NCBI GenBank assembly: GCA_000004695.1
Contig: CM000153.2
Span: forward strand, 992,001-1,056,000
Source of the DNA: Dictyostelium discoideum
Taxonomy: Eukaryota
DNA length: 64,000 bases
Direction: 5' to 3'
Each line of letters opens with the position of its first letter. The first letter of the stretch is position 1. Position numbers and translations under genes: made by a program. A model generated the notes under the pieces. That model had not been told where the DNA came from and made no database searches. It worked only from the letters and a program-made list of their open reading frames with translations. Below, piece after piece: positions 8,345 through 43,392 of the stretch.

Positions 8345-8527
8345 TTTTTATTTTTATTTTTTATTTTTTATTTATTTTTTTTTTTTAGAGAGAAGAGAGA
8401 GAGAAAAAAAAAACCCAAAAAAAAAAAGGGGGTTTATGGGTGTTAATTATTAAAAGGTATTTGGCCCCATTTTTACCATTTACTATTAGGATTACCTTAT
8501 TTGGATGGGGGTTATACACCCCTAAGG

Positions 8528-8558
<31 letters not shown>

Positions 8559-8721
8559 CCTGGAAAATTTTTTAAAAAAAATTAAAAAATAAAAAAAATA
8601 AAATAAAATGGGTTTTTTTTTTTTTTTTTTTTTTGTTTTGTTTTGTTTTGTTTTTTTTTTTTTTTTTTTTAAAAAAAAAATTATTTATTTTTAGAATTTT
8701 CATTATTATTATTAATTTAAT

Positions 8722-10269
8722 TTAAATAAAATGTTTTTCATATGAGAATAAACTATGTACAGAGCCTTCAACTTGAGCGGCAGCGGTTCTAACTTCGAAT
8801 CTAACTTTACCACCATAAACACTTTCACGTAAATTTGTGACAGAATTACAACCAAGATCTTGAAGACCATGTTTAATACCTTGAATGAGATATGGGACGA
8901 ATTTCTTTACGGAACCTTTATCTACAACACTACCACTAACACCTTGAGCGACTTTAATTTTATCGGTTTCACTAAAGTATCTTTGATCACCACCTTTAAC
9001 CATTGCTTCCAATGAACCCATACCACGATATTTCTTTAAACGCATACCATCCTTGTAGAAATAATCACCTGGAGCCTCTTCGGTACCGGCCAACATACTG
9101 CCCATCATTACAGAGGAAGCGCCCAATGAGAGACCTTTAATGATATGACCGATGGTACGAATACCACCGTCGGCAATGATTGGTACATTGTATTGACTAG
9201 AGTAGAGGGCACATTTGAATACGGCGGTGGCTTGAGGACGACCACATGCCATAACCTCTTGAGTGGTGCAAATGGAACCAACACCCATACCAACTCTAAG
9301 ACCATCTACACCTGCTTGGATTAAACTTTCACATTGAGAAGTGGTGACTACATTGCCACCAATAACATCGATCTTTGGATAGTTTCTCTTGATGAATCTA
9401 ATCATTTCACGTTGATAGGTTGAGTCACCTTGAGAGGAATCTAAAATAACAACATCGACACCAGCATCACTGAGTGCGGCCAAACGTTCTTTATCGGTTT
9501 CACGAGTACCCAAAGCGGCACCGACCAAGAGTTTCTTATTTTCATGGTCTTTGGTTGCCATTGGGAAATCTCTATTCTTTACAAGATCATCACGTGATGC
9601 CAATGCTACGAGCTCACCTTTATCATTTACAATTGGTAACTTTCCTTTCTTACAACTCTTTAGGATGGAATTTGCCTCCTCGAGTGTACAATTTTGTTGA
9701 CCAGTGATGAGATCGGTGGTCATTACCTCGGAGAGGGTGGTGGAACGATCCTTGATGAAATCGGTATCACGACTTGTAACAATACCCACTAATTTGCCTC
9801 CGATTCTACCAGTGTCTGTAATTGGAATACCAGAGAACCCATACTTTTGTTTGATCATATCCACATCGGATAACTTGTGTGTTGGTGATAAAACGATTGG
9901 ATCTGTGATAAAGCCATTCTTAAATCTTTTCACCTTTTTAACTTCAACAACTTGCTCTTCAACGGTATTGTTGTAATGAATGATACCAATACCACCCAAT
10001 AATGCCATATTGATTGCCATGAGATGTTCTGTAACTGTATCCATTGGTGAACTAACTAATGGAGCATTCAAACTGATATTCTTGGTTAATTTGGTCTTTA
10101 ATGATACATCATCGGCTGAGAAATTAATATGTCCTGGTAACATAATTAAATCATCATATGTATATCCATGTCTTTGTTGAAATAATTCAAAACAATCGAA
10201 TCCATCGACAAACCATTCGGATTTATATTCACTATTTGTACCTTGTAAAATTTTATTGATTTTTTCCAT
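8722..10269 (-). CDS. impdh: Inosine-5'-monophosphate dehydrogenase (IMPDH), single exon, 515 aa.
   Basis: The MEKINK start is an ATG at 10267-10269. I recognised a CBS-pair region and the catalytic loop [22 protein letters not shown]. The MGSLEAM and GGDQRYF motifs are present, the length is typical, and the frame is uninterrupted. Confidence 0.9.
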
Positions 10270-11126
10270 CTTTTTTTTTTTTTAAAAAAATTTTATTTAT
10301 TTATTTATTAATGATGGTTGGTAATAATAATAATTTTAATATGAAACAGAGTTGAATTTAAATTTGAAAATAAAAAAAAAAATTAAAATAAAAATAATAA
10401 AAAATTTTTATTTATTTAAATTTCTATTTGTGTGGTATTGAGTGTGAAGTGGAATTTGTAATTTAACTCCCCCGGAAAAAAAAAAAAAAAAAAAAAAAAA
10501 TTTTATTTATCATTTTTTTTTTTTTTTTTAATAATAAATAAAATTTAAAAAAAAATAAAATAAATTAAAAAAATATTAAAAATAAAAAAAAAAAAAAAAA
10601 AAAAAAATTAAAACGGCATAATAATATTTTTTAAACTTTTTAATAAACGGCCCTATTCACGGAACGAATTTACTTCCGGAAATCGGTTTTTCAATATTAA
10701 AAAAAAAAAAAAAAAAAAAAATAAAAAAAAAAAACTGAAAAGTCCAAAAAGGTAAGATCTTTTTTTTAAGATTTTTTTGATGGTATTAAAATTGAAAATA
10801 AAAAAAAATAAAAAATAAAAAAAATAAAAAAATAAAAATAAAAAAAAAAATAAAAATAAAAATAGATTGTTGTTAGTTTAACTCATTTATTAAGTTTTAT
10901 TAAAAAAAAAAAAAAAAATATAAAAAAAAAAAATAAAAAAATAAATAAAAATAAAACAAAAAAAGATTTTAAAAAAAAATTAACAGATCCCAAAAAATAA
11001 AATAAAAATAAACAAAAACAAAAAATAAAATAAAAATAAACAAAAAACAAAAACAAAAATAAAATAAATAAAAAAAAAAAAAAAAAAAAAGATCAGAATA
11101 AAAGATTGATTAAAACGTACATATAC

Positions 11127-11627: not shown

Positions 11628-12081
11628 TTTTTACTTAAATATTTATATATTCTTTGATTTATATTATATTATTAATTATTATTGTTATTGTTATTTTTGC
11701 TAAAGATATATTTTATTATATACACACAAATTGAATTGTTTAAATGGCAGTAAATTATAATCTGATAAATATTAACAACTATTTACTCAATGAAAAAAAA
11801 AAAAAAAATATGAAAAATTTTCGTCAAAATTTTTTTTTTTTTTTATTTTTTTAATTTTTTTTTTATTTTTTTATTTTTTTTTTTCTATTTGTTTGTTTAT
11901 TTTTTTTTATTTTTTTTTATGGAAACAATTAGATTTTGTTTGCCAAAAACTATTTTTTTTTTTTTCTTTTTTTTTGGTAAATTATTAATGTGTTTTATTT
12001 TTTGAAAGAGGAAAAAAAGTTTACTAGTAGTTTTTTACCTTTTTTCTCTCTTTTAAAAAGCTAAACACATTAATTATTCAC

Positions 12082-12129
<48 letters not shown>

Positions 12130-12198
12130 GTTTTAACTCTAACATATACACACACGCACACACACACGAATTTTTCAAAACAAATAAAAATAAACTAG

Positions 12199-12234
<36 letters not shown>

Positions 12235-12271
12235 ACTTACCTCTCGATCAAATAAAATCATAAAATGTAAC

Positions 12272-12305
<34 letters not shown>

Positions 12306-12687
12306 AAACTCAACCAAAAATGTAATCTCTTAAAGCACTACAAGTACAATCTACCAGCACCTTGGACATCAGTCAAAGAAATTTACACAGAACAAATCTC
12401 CAAATGAATTCACCCAGAACCTGCAACTTCTCTACTTCAAAAACATTAATAGTGAAGCCAATCGACAAATGGTCAACCCCACACAATCTTTCTCATCACA
12501 CCAAAAATGAAAGAAATCCAAGAATGGCACAACAGATTACCAGTCAAAAACTCCATCTATATTCAACAACCATAGAAGTCCTTTGCCCCACAACTGTATC
12601 ACCACATCCCTACTACTAAAAATCTCATAACTTTTTTTTAAAAATAATAAAAATAAAAATAAAAATCTATTTTTGAAAAATTGAATC

Positions 12688-12800
12688 GGCACTATTCTTT
12701 TAATTGGAAAAAAAAAAAAAAAAAAAAAAAAATGAATAGTGTAAGATCAATTTTTGGAAAAAAAAAAATGAATAGTGTCAGACCAATTTTTGGAAAAAAA
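12688..12800. repeat. Three copies of a roughly 17-bp motif, GAATAGTG(T/C)(A/C)AGA(T/C)CAA. Two are direct inside a 38-bp tandem duplication at 12722-12800, and one is inverted at 12688-12705.
   Basis: aatgaatagtgtaagatcaatttttggaaaaaaaaaa is followed by aatgaatagtgtcagaccaatttttgg. The inverted copy ttgaatcggcactattc is the reverse complement of gaatagtgccgattcaa. Confidence 0.6.
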
Positions 12801-12905
12801 AAAATTTAAAAGGAGAAGAATTTTTTTTTTTTTTTTACACTAATTGTTTTTATTGATAGAAGTTTCATGTAAATATTTTTAAATAGCTTTTAATATTTTT
12901 TTTTA

Positions 12906-13051
12906 ATGTTAGGAATCAAATTAATAAAAATGGAGTTAGTAAAATGTCAACCTGGTATATGCAATTGTTCATGTAAACCCGAGTCATTGATACCAACAAC
13001 AACCTCAACCTCAACAACAACAACTTCAACAACAACTTCAACAACAACTTC

Positions 13052-13083
<32 letters not shown>

Positions 13084-13243
13084 AAGATTTCAATACAGAA
13101 ACATAAAAATCACCTCAAGTTAAAAAGTCAGAAGAATTCGGATTTAAAAAGAAAACATACAATCAAGGTTATCCAAATAAATTTGTTTCAACGAAATGTG
13201 GTAATACTTGTGCCAAAAATATTATGAAAAAATCATTCAATTG
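12906..13243 (+). CDS. Possible small Cys-rich/Thr-rich secreted-type protein, MLGIKLIKMELVKCQPGICNCSCKPESLIPTTTSTSTT.... It is interrupted by an in-frame TAA at 13104-13106. The downstream in-frame segment KSPQVKKSEEFGFKKKTYNQGYPNKFVSTKCGNTCAKNIMKKSFN ends at 13243.
   Basis: Two consecutive ORFs sit in the same frame, separated by a single stop. There is no obvious intron signal across the stop. This could be a pseudogene or two separate small ORFs. Confidence 0.25.
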
Positions 13244-13464
13244 ATAATGAATCATTCATCTGTAAATGGGTTAAAGATAATGTAATTAGAATCATTTGCA
13301 GATAACATTACTGTCTCCACACTCACACACCACACCACCAAAACCTGTAAAATGCAATGAATCCAATAAACAATCATTTAAAAAATAATAATAAATAAAA
13401 TGGGTAATAATAATAATAAAAGAGTTTAAATATTTTTGTTTTAAGTTTTTATTAATTCCAATTT

Positions 13465-13548
13465 CCATTTCCCTATCTGAATTATCGATTTAACTATTTA
13501 TTTTTTTTTAAAAAAAAAAAAAAAATAGTTAAATCGATAATTCAGATA
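13465..13548. repeat. Perfect inverted repeat (hairpin) with 29-bp arms, CCCTATCTGAATTATCGATTTAACTATTT and AAATAGTTAAATCGATAATTCAGATAGGG. The arms are separated by T10A16.
   Basis: Read directly from the sequence, and the arms are exact reverse complements. It lies between convergent gene 3' ends, about 140 bp past the LMBR1-like gene stop. Confidence 0.85.
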
Positions 13549-13689
13549 GGGAAACCTAATTAATATTGAAAAATTGGATTATTTAATTAAATAATTATTT
13601 TTTATTTTTTTATTTTATTTTATTTTTTTTTTATTTTTTTTTTTTTATTTTTTTTTTTTTAAATATATATATTATATTATATAAATTAA

Positions 13690-15306
13690 TTATACACGAA
13701 TTTTAGCTGGTTTATCTTTTGGTTTAATGAATAAAAAGATAGCAGTAAGAACAGCCATAACAAAGACACCAAAGATGTAGACAACCCAGAACCATTTTAA
13801 GATTTTAAGATTTTTAACTGCAGTTTCAAAGAGTGAATTGATTGCAGTTGTTGAAGTGAATTGAGAGAAAGCCATCGTACAGAAATGAGTGATTGAGACG
13901 GAAGTGATAAGGATTAAACCAACATTGAAGAGGAAAGCATTCATCATGGTATTACCAACCCTCATAGGATGAATTGGGAAGAGGAAGAAAAGACGTAACC
14001 CAAATTTGAAATTACCCTTGACAACACAAAACAATAAATAGAATGAGAGTAAACCATAGACAATGACACCAAGGAAACCCCAAGCATTGTTCAATGCAAT
14101 GACCAAACTGTTTAAGAATGGGTGGAATGGCTCTGGTGCGGTGATCATGTAGATGATGATGTGAAGCAACCATCCAAGACTGACGCCCAATGCAACGAAG
14201 CCCCCAAAGAACTGGGCGTAGTAAAAGATGACCTTGCCACCTTGTCTCTTGTAAGAGATCTTCAAACGCTCGTAATCCTCCTCCAACAAGAAAATAGCTT
14301 GACGGAAACGATTGTAATTCTTTCTATCACGTTTGCTCATGATGCCACCCGATGTACGTGACTGGATGGTCTTGCCGATCTCCACTAACTCAGTGGCACG
14401 TTCACCAATCTTCTTCTTTCTTTCCAAATATTTGTCATATGGTATACGTTGTGGACGATTCTTAAAGTCGCCAATCATATCGAATGGCAAGGCGACCAAG
14501 CCGATACCACCGAAAATGATGAATAACAACCAACCAAAGAATGCAACCATTGTGATGATGAAAAGTGCGATGGACACACGGAATTGTAAAAATTCTTTAT
14601 CCAAACGATATTCTACATACTCCGATCCGTCTCCTAAAAGATCTGGATTTCCAGGATCGAATCTGATCCTCTCGTCATTTCCACCAATGATTGCTGCTAT
14701 CTCTGGTAATGCATATGTTATATTACTAATATCTGACATGAATGGATAGTTTAGAACTTGGAATCTACCCAATACAACAATGGTTGGAATCTCTGCCACA
14801 CCAAAGAATACATATAAAACAATGGTTAATGCTGTAAATGCAAATAGAATTGCAAATGTACCCTTGAATGCTCCTGCAATTTGACTACCTGCTCCTGGAT
14901 CTGCTTCTTCTGATTCATAGAAGAACATTGCAAATGGGCAAATAACAACTGCAAATACTGCCACTGCAATATATATAATAATCCATAATATATCCATAGG
15001 AAATCCACCACTTCCTCCATCATTTGCTACATCCAATGGTAACATTAAAATACTTGTTGCTGCTAATGTTAAACCTAAAATCTATAATTATAAAAAATAA
15101 AAAGTTATTAGATATTTTTCAGATATTTTTATTTTAAATTTAAAATAAAAATGGAAAAAAAAAAAAAAACTTACAACAATAATTTTCGGGAAATAGGCAA
15201 CATTTTTGTCATCTGGATGTTGGAAATATGCAATTAAATACAAACTTGCTAAAACTACAAGTGCTGGTATAACAACAGCAATAATAATTAAGAAGACGTT
15301 AACCAT
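13690..15306 (-). CDS. LMBR1-domain multi-pass membrane protein (LMBR1/LMBD-like), complement(join(13690..15081,15175..15306)).
   Basis: Exon 1 reads [44 protein letters not shown] from ATG 15304-15306 and is followed by a GTAAGT donor. The acceptor tatAG is at 15082-15083. Exon 2 is in phase 0, [23 protein letters not shown].... I count about 9 TM helices, and the overall pattern resembles LMBR1 family proteins. Confidence 0.7.
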
Positions 15307-31935: not shown

Positions 31936-35322
<3,387 letters not shown>

Positions 35323-37583: not shown

Positions 37584-39872
37584 ATGGATACATTATCATT
37601 ATTTTTAGGATCAAAGGTAATAATAATAATTAGATTATTATTATTATTATTATTATTATAATTATTATTTTAAAATTAAAACCATATAATATTAATAATA
37701 TTTCTTTTATTTTAGGGTGAAAATAAAAAATTATTTAGCCAACTTTCAAAAATGGTATTAAACTCTGCAATTGATTCAAGAATTCAATACTGTGGTAATG
37801 AACCTTCAATTTTTGAAGATGATTATTTTGAATCTGATAATTTTAAAAAATCAAGTGAATTAATTAAAGAAAATACAAAGTTAATTTGTAATTATATTAA
37901 AGATTCTACTCAATTTTCAAGTTTACGATATCAAGCTCATATGATAGAAGATCCTTTAATTCCAAGTTTTATTGGTACAATTTCAGGCCTTTATTATAAT
38001 ACTAATACATGTACTCCTCAAGTTTCTAATAAATCTTCCTTTATTGAACATGCATTTGCTAGTGACCTATGTTCAATGGTAGGTTATGATACAAGTAAAA
38101 TACCAGATTATTATAATTCAATGAAAACAGTTTCAATAAAAGAAATAATTAAAAGAGAAGTTGAAACTGTATATCCTCATGGTCATAATACTAGTGGTGG
38201 TTCAGTATCAAACATTGAAGCATGTTGGTCAAGTTATTGGGTTAAATTTATTCCAGTTGCAATTAAAAATGCATTATTAAATGAAAATGATTTAATTGAT
38301 TCCAGGGAATTAACAATTACCCTAAATGATTGTAAAACTAATAAACAATTAATTGAATGTACAAATTGGGAATTATCAAATTTAAATGGAGATTTATCAG
38401 TAAAATTACCATATCAAATAAGTTTAGAATGTAATTTACCAATTGAAAATGTTTATGAAATTATTAAAAGATATCATTCGTGTTCATTGGGTGCATATCG
38501 GTTTTTTGTGGATAATCAAATTAATCAACCAATTTATTTAATACCAGCATCAGCTCATTATTGTTTTAAAAAAGCAGTATGTTTGATTGGATTAGGTTCA
38601 ACAAATATAAAATTAATAAAAATTGAACCAAATGGTAGAATAAATATAAATGATGTGAAAATGATTATTAAAAATTGTATTGAGAATCAAATTCCAATTA
38701 TTAATATCATATCGATATTAGGTTCAACCCAAGAGTATGGTGTCGATAATATTGATGAAATAGTTTCAATTAGAAATCAAGTAAGAAGAGACTTGAATTT
38801 TAATTTTGAAATGCATGTAGATGGTGCATTCGGTGGATATTCATTATCATGTATTAGAGATAACTTTCAATTGGAAAATCCATTAGATGATCAATTATTA
38901 TTTCCTAATAATATTGAAAATGAAAATAACAATCAAAATGAAATTGATTCATTTGATCCAGAATTAATAATTAGTAGTTATGTTAAAAAACAATTACATG
39001 CTTGTAAATTTGTAGATTCAATTACATTGGATGGTCATAAATCTGGCTTTTTACCATTTTCAAATAGTACAATTTGTTATAGAAATTCAAAGTATAAAGA
39101 TATTATTACACTCTCTTCTGCTTATATAGATATCTGTAAAAAGAATATTCCAAACTGTGGCGTGTTTGGTATTGAAGGTTCTCGTCCAGGTTATTCTTCA
39201 ATCGCAGGTTATTTAACTCATTCAATAATTCGTCCTTCGAAAATTGGATATGGTAAAATTTTAAAAAGATGTATTTTTAATGCAAAATTATTTTATATAT
39301 CCTTGTTAATTAAATTCGATGGTAATAATGGTAATAATATAAAAGTGTTTACAGTTGGTAATAATCCATCAAGTGATGTTTTAAATTATTTAAAAACAGA
39401 AATAATCGATTCGAATACTGGTAAAATCAAATCATTAGATCAAATTGTATCAAATAAAACATTATTACAAATTTTATCAAATTATGGAGCAGATTTAAAC
39501 GGTGTTTGTTTTGGTTTTAATTTTATTTCACCTTCAACTGGCGAATTAAATAATGATTATCAAAAATATGTAGAACTTAATAAAATGATAATTGATAGAT
39601 TCGATTATTCAAGAGGACCTGAAGCAGATTTGATATTTGGAAATACATTTTTAAATAATAGTTATGGTAATGAATTTATTTCAAATTTCCTTGAAACAAA
39701 TGAATTAAAAATTAATATCCCTATCTATAATAAAATCAAAATTCCAATACTAAGGTCATCAACTATGTCACCTTTTATTAGTGAAACATCTGAAGGTTCA
39801 TATATTGATATTATGCTTTACCTATTATTAAAAGAAATTACAGGTTTTTTATTTTCAATTGATAAATTATAA
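37584..39872 (+). CDS. Group II PLP-dependent decarboxylase-like protein, copy 1, about 717 aa, join(37584..37616,37716..39872).
   Basis: Exon 1 is ATGGATACATTATCATTATTTTTAGGATCAAAG (MDTLSLFLGSK), followed by a GTAATA donor. The acceptor ttttAG is at 37714-37715. Exon 2 in phase 0 begins GENKKLFSQLSKMVLNS.... The fold-type I / group II motifs are HNTSGGSVSNIEA, ILGSTQEYGVDNIDEI, MHVDGAFGGY, and the PLP-lysine motif SITLDGHKSGFLPFSNS. Confidence 0.75.
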
Positions 39873-41127: not shown

Positions 41128-43392
41128 ATGGATTCTTTATCATTATTTTTAGGATCAAAGGTAATATCTTTATATTATTATTATAAATCTCAAACCATAT
41201 TAATTAATTTTTTTTTTTTTTTAAAAAAAAATTAGGGTGAAAATAAAAAATTATTTTCTGAACTTTCAAAAATGGTATCAAACTATGCAATTGATTCAAG
41301 AATTAAATATAGTGGTAATGAACCTTCAATTTTTGAAGATGATTATTTTGAATCTGATGATTTTATAAAATCAAGTGAATTAATTAAAGAAAATACAAAA
41401 TTAATTTGTAATTATATTAAAGATTCTACTCAATTTTCAAGTTTAAGATATCAAGCTCATATGGTTACTGATCCCTTAATTCCAAGTTTTATTGGTACAA
41501 TTGCTGGTCTTTTTTATAACTCTAATATATGTACTACTCAATCTTCTAATAAAACTTCCTTTATTGAATATGAATTTGCAAATGATCTTTGTTCGATGGT
41601 AGGTTATGATACAAGTAATATACCAGATTATTATAATTCAATCAAAACAGTTTCTATAAAAGAAAAAGTTCAAAGAGAATTTGAAACTGTATATCCACAT
41701 GGTCATAATACTAGTGGTGGTTCAGTATCAAACATTGAAGCATGTTGGTCAAGTTATTGGGTTAAATTTATTCCAGTTGCAATTAAAAATGCATTATTAA
41801 ATGAAAATGATTTAATTGATTCCAAAAATTTATTTATTACATTAGAAGATGGTAAAACCAATAAATTATTAATTGAATGTACAAATTGGGAATTATCAAA
41901 TTTAAATGGTGATTTATCAGTAAAATTACCATATCAAATAAGTTTAGAATGTAATTTACCAATTGAAAATGTTTATGAAATTATTAAAAGATATCATTTA
42001 TGCTCATTAGGTACATTTAAATTTTTTGTAAAAAATAAAATTAATGAACCAATTTATTTAATACCAGCATCAGCTCATTATTGTTTTAAAAAGGCAGTAT
42101 GTTTGATTGGATTAGGCTCAGATAATATAAAACTAATAAAAATTGAACCAAATGGTAGAATGAATATAAATGAAGTAAAAACGATTATTAAAAACTGTAT
42201 TGAAAATCAAATTCCAATCATTAATATCATATCGATATTAGGTTCGACTCAAGAGTATGGTGCTGATAATATCGATGAAATTGTTTCAATTAGAAATCAA
42301 GTAAGAAGAGACTTTAATTTTAATTTTGAAATGCATGTAGATGGTGCGTTCGGTGGATATTCATTATCATGTATTAGAGAGAACTTTTGGTTGAAAAATC
42401 CATTAGATTATCAATTATCATTACCTAATAATTTTGAAAATGAACAAAATAATCAAAACGAAACTGATTCATTTGATCCAGAATTAATAATTAGTAGTTT
42501 TTTAAAAAAACAATTACATGCTTGTAAGTTTGTAGATTCAATTACATTGGATGGTCATAAATCTGGCTTTTTACCATTTTCAAATAGTACAATTTGTTAT
42601 AGAAATTCAAAGTATAAAGATATTCTAACATTAGCTCCTGTTTATGTCGATGATGGAAAAAAGAATATTCCAAACTGTGGTGTGTTTGGTATTGAAGGTT
42701 CTCGTCCTGGTCATTCTTCAGTTGCAGGTTATTTAACTCATTCAATAATTCGTCCTTCGAAAAACGGATATGGTAAACTTTTAAAAAGATGTATTTTAAA
42801 TTCGAAATTATTTTATATTTCCTTGTTAATTAAATTCGATGGTAATAATGGTAATAATATAAAAGTGGTCACAGTTGGTAATAACCCATCCAGTGATGTT
42901 TTAAATTATTTAAAAACAGAAATCATCGATTCGAATACTGGTAAAATCAAATCATTAGATCAAATTGTATCAAATAAAACATTATTACAAATTTTATCAA
43001 ATTATGGAGCAGATTTAAACGGTGTTTGTTTTGGTTTTAATTTTATTTCACCTTCAACTGGTGAATTAAATAATGATTATCAAAAATATGTAGAACTTAA
43101 TAAAATGATAATTGATAGATTCGATTATTCAAGAGGACCTGAAGCAGATTTGATATTTGGAAATACATTTTTAAATAATAGTTATGGTAATGAATTTATT
43201 TCAAATTTCCTTGAAACAAATGAATTAAAAATTAACATTCAAGCCTATAATAAAATCAAAATTCCATTACTCAGGTCATCAACTATGTCACCTTTTATTA
43301 GTGAAACATCTGATGGTTCATATATTGATATAATGCTTGACCTATTATTAAAAGAAATTACAGATTTTTTATTTTCAATTGATAAATTATAA
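41128..43392 (+). CDS. Group II PLP-dependent decarboxylase-like protein, copy 2, a tandem paralogue about 90% identical to copy 1, join(41128..41160,41236..43392).
   Basis: Same two-exon structure as copy 1. Exon 1 reads MDSLSLFLGSK and is followed by a GTAATA donor. The acceptor attAG is at 41234-41235. The protein is collinear with copy 1 and has the same motifs, including DGHK. Confidence 0.75.

Follow-up and report, generated by a model that had tools for sequence, protein, structure and literature searches.

An 87-bp near-perfect palindrome in the Dictyostelium discoideum laboratory lineage, very probably born by short-range template switching

A long palindrome between two genes of Dictyostelium discoideum very probably arose as a recent inverted duplication in the NC4/AX lineage, via a short-range template switch, either with snap-back of the nascent strand or with synthesis passing briefly to the other strand. 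We regard it as a clean, unusually well-resolved new instance of a known mutational mechanism. The palindrome lies within a 64-kb stretch of DNA with a GC content of 17-32%, referred to below as the window.

A repeat and pattern search of the window returned two 29-mers, at 13471-13499 and 13523-13551, which are exact reverse complements of each other. This confirmed the perfect 29-bp inverted repeat described in an earlier, sequence-only reading of the window, although that reading had located the element at 13465-13548 and had given its spacer as T10A16, where the spacer in fact reads A-T9-A13 (13500-13522, 23 nt). With the adjoining TTT...AAA counted, the perfect stem extends to 32 nt (13468-13499/13523-13554), and with T9/A9 pairing included, the arms grow to 42 nt (13468-13509/13513-13554), are 98% complementary and enclose a loop of 3 nt. 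The whole element is an 87-bp near-perfect palindrome (13468-13554) with a single A·A mismatch (13500/13522). Its parts and flanks are as follows:

13451..13467, plus strand: flank ATTAATTCCAATTTCCA, the reverse complement of TGGAAATTGGAATTAAT, where the inverted copy joins the (TGGAAA)n repeat
13468..13509, plus strand: derived (new) arm, an inverted copy of the ancestral arm, the A that follows it and the T-run, reading TTTCCCTATCTGAATTATCGATTTAACTATTT-A-T9
13510..13522, no strand assigned: A13 run, matching the ancestral T-run beside the original arm
13523..13554, minus strand: ancestral arm, reading TTTCCCTATCTGAATTATCGATTTAACTATTT on the minus strand and orthologous to the single arm of wild isolates
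13555..13578, plus strand: the other flank, CCTAATTAATATTGAAAAATTGGA, kept beside the ancestral arm in all lineages of the discoideum clade

Within the A13 run, positions 13510-13512 form the 3-nt loop, positions 13513-13521 pair with T9, and 13522 is the unpaired A. The junction at the ATTAATTCCAATTTCCA flank (13451-13467) carries GGAAA/TTTCC microhomology. Further out, folding predicted an 8-nt inverted repeat, TCCAATTT at 13457-13464 pairing with AAATTGGA at 13571-13578, in all strains; this outer repeat pre-dates the palindrome and brackets its site. The ATCGAT core of the arm, previously pointed out as being palindromic itself, is so incidentally, since the one arm of the ancestral state already has it.

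The suggestion that such a stem is very unlikely to occur by chance held up on every measure applied. The palindrome match scored 58 bits, whereas none of 30 Markov-simulated windows yielded more than 27 bits; it is the only complex perfect hairpin of the window, the next-ranking real complex hairpin scoring 20.7 bits. In silico folding indicated the palindrome to adopt a very stable structure both as RNA (MFE -54.7 kcal/mol, z = -13.1) and as DNA (-43 kcal/mol, z = -12.5), with none of 200 shuffled sequences folding as well in either case. It could extrude from DNA as a cruciform or a hairpin. In 206 kb of related Dictyostelium loci, the orthologue was the only further copy, and the next-best perfect complex hairpin reached 31 bits. 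Elsewhere in the window, a 10-nt hairpin (ACAGTTTCAA) with a 24-nt loop recurs at 38127 and 44442.

The genes that frame the intergenic region are the following:

8722-10269, minus strand: IMPDH, a flanking gene
12906..13106, plus strand: small Cys/Thr-rich ORF (MELVKCQPGICNCSCKPES...), upstream of the palindrome and converging on it
13690..15306, minus strand: LIMR/LMBR1 family gene DDB_G0283707, in two exons with an intron at 15082-15174 and its stop codon at 13690-13692

The spliced LMBR1 product is 100% identical to the AX4 LIMR family protein DDB_G0283707 (P0094), and the flanking genes mark the window as D. discoideum DNA of AX4 type. The end of the palindrome is separated from the LMBR1 stop codon by 135 nt, a distance earlier given as about 140 bp. 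That the element sits between convergent genes, as had also been proposed, is reasonable inasmuch as the two wild isolates introduced below (L014 and L015) have gene models, of 118 and 130 aa, for homologues of the Thr-rich ORF; in the window strain itself, however, this ORF is weak. There, an in-frame TAA (13104-13106) ends it where L014 and L015 read on (region 12906-13245), and it may be either a fast-evolving small gene or a pseudogene of the AX lineage. Read from the sequence, the AATAAA motifs of both convergent neighbours precede the palindrome; cleavage would presumably take place there. The palindrome sits beyond the likely poly(A) signals of both genes.

Several other features of the window were recorded along the way. 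A tRNA scan of all 64 kb returned none. An ORF at 31936-35322 (minus strand) contains an NRDE-2 domain (E = 8.5e-71), annotated in Pfam as 'necessary for RNA interference'; its position 18 kb from the hairpin is happenstance and implies no connection. Two 706-aa ORFs on the plus strand (37752-39872 and 41272-43392), 3.5 kb apart, have the look of a tandem gene duplication, and a domain scan of the first detected a pyridoxal-dependent decarboxylase domain. As to gene order, D. discoideum and D. citrinum share the arrangement OSBP(-) LMBR1(+) IMPDH(+), while LMBR1(+) is followed by OSBP(+) in D. purpureum (L004), D. dimigraforme (L010) and D. firmibasis (L011). D. firmibasis has two tandem LMBR1 genes; the D. 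discoideum paralogue, DDB_G0293610, sits elsewhere.

A second assembly, GCA_054883475.1 (L005), covers window positions 1-20326 in reverse orientation at 99.4% identity, and its palindrome arms and spacer match the window base for base. It is probably the AX2-214 assembly of PMC12745789, since its LMBR1 and IMPDH proteins are identical to those of the window and AX2-214 is the only lab-strain genome of that project. Over 20 kb, the two assemblies differ at 55 small sites, all of them in low-complexity intergenic stretches, and we therefore treat them as independent reads of essentially one genetic lineage. That the palindrome is an artefact of assembly or cloning is scarcely credible: chimeric reads or clones can make palindromes, but this one is identical in an independent assembly that deviates at those 55 other places. 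AX2 and AX4 both descend from isolate NC4, and the palindrome is therefore presumably older than laboratory culture. Among the differences between the assemblies, dense clusters of G/C-versus-A/T changes at intergenic positions 8414-8563 and 10472-10475 (e.g., ...ttaggggtgtataaccccca...) look like base-calling errors in one assembly and not like real polymorphism.

Membership in the 90% cluster of LMBR1 proteins led to the corresponding locus of two D. discoideum wild isolates (L014 and L015), two cryptic lineages designated D. cf. discoideum (L012 and L013), D. citrinum (L009), D. dimigraforme and D. firmibasis. Two further sets of loci were set aside: L001-L003 represent the paralogous, DDB_G0293610-like LMBR1 locus and are uninformative for the hairpin, and in D. 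purpureum, D. firmibasis and D. dimigraforme, the different arrangement, with LMBR1 beside OSBP, renders the intergenic region non-orthologous. The intergenic region of both wild isolates is collinear with the window at ~82% identity. At the site orthologous to the palindrome, L014, L015 and L012 each carry a single arm that is continuous with both of the same flanks, and the distance between anchors is 63-64 nt in the wild isolates as compared to 92 nt in AX. These single-arm assemblies are long-read based; a collapse of the second arm by the pipeline is unlikely, because the AX2-type assembly of the same project retains the palindrome.

Written in the orientation of the LMBR1 gene, L015 reads ...TTAGG-T-TTTCCCTATCTAAATTATCGATTTAACTATTT-A-T10-A3-(TGGAAA)3TTGGAATTAAT, and the AX lineage reads ...TTAGG-TTTCCCTATCTGAATTATCGATTTAACTATTT-T13-A9-T-AAATAGTTAAATCGATAATTCAGATAGGGAAA-TGGAAATTGGAATTAAT. 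The left flank, ...CAATATT[A/T]ATTAGG, adjoins the ancestral arm in L005, L014, L015 and L012 alike. On the other side, the arm is followed in L014 and L015 by A-T8/10-A3/4, and both isolates have (TGGAAA)3TTGGAATTAAT where the AX lineage has GGGAAA-TGGAAATTGGAATTAAT. A linear alignment of AX with its relatives breaks down here into a gap of ~30 columns and mismatches. The new arm (13468-13509), by contrast, is identical to the arm+A+T9 of L015 at 41 of 42 positions, but faces the other way with respect to the flanks. The ancestral A is preserved in it and is now T in the original copy, giving rise to the single A·A mismatch, and an AX-specific G is common to both AX arms. Used as proxies for the parent allele, the sequences without the hairpin fold no better than chance (z -0.26 to +0.15), as opposed to z = -14 in the AX lineage.

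The direction of the change was read from 4463 gap-free sites of the OSBP, LMBR1 and IMPDH genes, polarised by D. citrinum, by counting polarised shared-derived sites and building a local gene tree of six sequences. The numbers of shared derived sites were:

AX + L012 + L014 + L015: 43
L014 + L015: 26
AX + L014 + L015: 24
L012 + L014 + L015 (rival grouping): 6
AX + L012 (rival grouping): 2

The resulting local tree is (((AX,(L014,L015)),L012),L013),citrinum, and LMBR1 gene distances agree with it. Both the sister group of AX and the outgroup next to it have the single arm, which is therefore the ancestral state; the palindrome was gained along the AX branch, where one event suffices to account for the data. 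D. citrinum lacks an entire segment of ~1.56 kb (window ~12018-13583) that is present throughout the discoideum clade and in which lie the Thr-rich ORF, the one arm of the ancestral state and, at 12300-12620, a stretch richer in GC; the LMBR1-IMPDH spacer of D. citrinum measures 1.8 kb, as opposed to 3.4 kb. The polarity of the site itself therefore does not come directly from the true outgroup.

Long palindromes are prone to deletion, and the palindrome might conversely have been ancestral to the discoideum clade, with one arm deleted in the wild isolates through palindrome instability, for which the A-run and the terminal AAA could have supplied microhomology. We consider this quite improbable. 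At least two independent deletions would be needed, one in the ancestor of L014 and L015 and one in L012, both leaving the same arm-A-T8 junction. The single-arm alleles also have two extra TGGAAA units, as well as an A where AX has T, neither of which a simple deletion yields, and the AX-specific G in both AX arms fits a duplication that came later than that substitution. Sequence comparison can thus be taken to have shown that one arm is ancestral, that the other was gained on the branch leading to AX, and that this copy is inverted and has the junctions described above.

The same comparison bears on the nature of the element. Its shape alone, that of two perfect inverted repeats in intergenic DNA, had suggested a small foldback element (MITE) or the remnant of the terminal inverted repeats (TIRs) of a DNA transposon. 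This reading is now very improbable and the corresponding proposal of the sequence-only reading is refuted: instead of an empty site, L014, L015 and L012 keep one arm in place; the flanks (...TTTCCA / TTTCCC...GGGAAA / CCTAAT...) share no direct repeat that could represent a target-site duplication (TSD); and the internal sequence is merely a T/A run. The search for additional copies of the 29-mer, proposed at the time as a check for a MITE family, was likewise negative: nothing further turned up within the 64 kb of the window when up to 3 mismatches were allowed, the first ~180 kb of related Dictyostelium loci yielded the orthologous sites alone when up to 6 errors were allowed, and JGI metagenome contigs contained no exact match to the arm.

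A template switch, in contrast, would produce the AX allele from a wild-type-like parent in one step. The ancestral state, again in LMBR1 orientation, would have been flank - ARM - A - T8-10 - A3-4 - (TGGAAA)3 - TTGGAATTAAT. During synthesis, the template would have been switched at the TnAn tract, whose self-complementarity lets it nucleate a snap-back; ARM-A-T9 would then have been copied in reverse complement to give A9-T-rcARM, until GGAAA microhomology brought synthesis back onto its first template at the TGGAAA repeat. In net terms, ~12 nt would have been exchanged for ~42 nt in a single step. Later, A would have changed to T beside the arm in the original copy, generating the single mismatch, and the lengths of the homopolymer runs would have drifted. 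The second junction indeed displays 5 nt of microhomology, the copy ending in ...GGGAAA and the sequence resuming at TGGAAA. Neither L015 nor L014, taken as the starting sequence, predicts the AX product base for base; one further substitution and altered lengths of the A/T runs are required as well. As to enzymology, the switch may have been intra- or inter-strand and may have occurred during replication or during repair synthesis.

The palindrome conforms to the published criteria for hairpins created by template-switch mutations (TSMs; PMC10710096), which call for 15 nt or more of inverted sequence, five or more differences accounted for, a parent devoid of any comparable hairpin, a stem length of 30-55 and a loop at the centre. 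In the present case, the inverted fragment measures 42 nt (41/42 inverted identity to the L015 arm+A+T9), and the differences explained number at least five as judged by linear alignment (the ~30-column gap plus mismatches; anchors at 92 versus 63-64 nt). The parent proxies have z ~0, while the AX stem of 42 bp surrounds a central loop of 3 nt. As for source sequence and phylogeny, the arm exists in L014, L015 and L012, AX is nested inside this group, and D. citrinum is without the segment.

A separate rearrangement was noticed in L013 (L013:7750-7815, orthologous to window ~13440-13530), where a segment of ~56 nt has the reverse of its orientation in L014 and L015. This segment starts at the end of the arm, takes in the T/A run and the TGGAAATTGAAATTAAT flank and extends as far as ...ACAGAAAA; it matches at 36 of 37 positions over its complex part, and has lost ~13 nt of the arm. 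As a second independent event at the same TnAn tract, this inversion supports a proneness of the tract to such changes. The earlier idea of a replication or recombination hotspot thus comes close as far as origin is concerned, with a template-switch product and the L013 inversion at one tract, but not as a function of the element.

Does the palindrome have a role as RNA? Dictyostelid miRNAs are almost all species-specific and turn over very fast, and the young ones originate from hairpins of unusual length that contain at most one mismatch; how miRNAs are gained in Dictyostelia is stated to be open (PMC11014262). In primates, template switching seeds new miRNAs (PMC10710096). It follows the same line of thought that the hairpin might already be functional as RNA, either as a newborn precursor of miRNAs or siRNAs processed by DrnB or by affecting 3' end formation of the convergent genes. 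In support of this, the predicted 42-bp stem is a good Dicer substrate, its predicted fold (MFE -54.7 kcal/mol, z = -13) is that of a stable hairpin precursor as required of a Dictyostelium miRNA, and there is precedent in both the young dictyostelid miRNAs (PMC11014262) and the TSM-seeded miRNAs of primates (PMC10710096). Yet, we deem it unlikely. Substring searches found the palindrome neither among the coordinates and mature sequences that PMC6161686 tabulates for D. discoideum miRNAs nor in the text supplements of PMC11014262; one spurious match in these searches corresponded to an unrelated RT-PCR primer. A 3-nt loop and a stem centre composed of A/U only are atypical of miRNA precursors. 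The palindrome also lies downstream of the AATAAA signals of both neighbours, and its transcription would therefore need read-through; such a read-through transcript would provide a dsRNA stem of 42 bp, and at most the raw material for a hairpin RNA. Finally, the palindrome is missing from wild isolates that are interfertile with the laboratory lineage, being reported to form macrocysts with AX2 (PMC12745789). Being missing there, it must be dispensable and cannot be essential.

Rfam provided no identity for the element either. All hits were below threshold, at no more than 36 bits where gathering scores range from 55 to 230 (the best at 35.9 versus 230), and belonged to unrelated, generic miRNA-hairpin models of plants and animals, reflecting shape and not homology. 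Most probably, then, the palindrome is young and effectively neutral and has no selected consequence, with 'no function' as the default position.

A second long hairpin, this one imperfect, occupies window positions 11960-12100 in the same intergenic region, 1.45 kb away, with arms at ~11975-12018 and ~12042-12085. Its RNA fold has an MFE of -46 kcal/mol on the plus strand (z = -8.9) and -50.5 kcal/mol on the minus strand (z = -10.9), and it is conserved in all four other loci of the discoideum clade (L014, L015, L012 and L013). Compensatory double changes affect 10 of its 41 pairs, compared to 2.6 ± 1.4 in shuffles, none of 500 of which reached 10, and to 0-3 in slid controls. D. citrinum appears to have one arm alone, a tentative assignment given the AT-rich alignment, and one boundary of the 1.56-kb segment missing from that species falls inside the hairpin. 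The searched miRNA supplements did not contain it, and its sole Rfam hit was sub-threshold and generic. It may represent a structured RNA under selection, or else a template-switch hairpin of greater age with arms that have been repeatedly homogenised, and it may merit more attention than the palindrome that we set out from.

Taken by itself, the palindrome is one neutral-looking mutation in the lineage of a laboratory strain. Its value is that of a before-and-after example in which the single-arm parent allele, the inverted copy, the microhomologies at both junctions and the later drift can all be read, and it shows template switching to create long perfect hairpins in Dictyostelium. The multi-strain assemblies now available (PMC12745789) make a genome-wide tally of such events feasible. 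For annotators, it is a warning against taking every perfect palindrome between D. discoideum genes for a transposon. A broader reading, suggested by the older, conserved second hairpin (~11975-12085) together with the independent L013 inversion at the same tract, is that TnAn junctions in AT-rich Dictyostelium intergenic DNA are recurrent sites of snap-back or template switching, making hairpins that feed the fast turnover of miRNAs. We rate this as rather unlikely; if it were true, the palindrome would be a hairpin caught at birth. Likewise, should small RNAs map to 13468-13554 in AX, the locus would be a hairpin-RNA gene born de novo at the level of a strain, with its parent allele segregating in interfertile wild isolates.

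Among known systems, young dictyostelid miRNA hairpins (PMC11014262) resemble the palindrome in being unusually long, having zero or one mismatch, lying between genes and being confined to one lineage, but the palindrome differs from them by its 3-nt loop, the pure A/U centre of its stem and its absence from the searched miRNA tables. With MITEs and foldback transposons, it has in common two inverted repeats and a short spacer; it departs from them in lacking a TSD, copies in the searched sequence and an empty site, and in that one arm is ancestral and unique. Fold-back inverted duplications and hairpin-capped break repair (PMC3907307, PMC10766183) involve the same intrastrand pairing at a short inverted repeat, although they span kilobases to megabases, as opposed to tens of bases here, and the palindrome is accompanied by no change in gene copy number and no dicentric sign.

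The closest counterpart is provided by template-switch mutations, as described in Ripley's quasipalindrome correction and by Löytynoja & Goldman and Mönttinen et al. (PMC8794818, PMC10710096); our literature search found no paper linking TSMs with Dictyostelium. These mutations consist in the same one-step replacement by an adjacent reverse complement, and they share with the present event an unstructured parent, a perfect child stem of ~30-55 bp, microhomology at the switch points, a central loop and lineage specificity. What sets this event apart is its AT-rich amoebozoan host and its apparent nucleation at a TnAn homopolymer junction.
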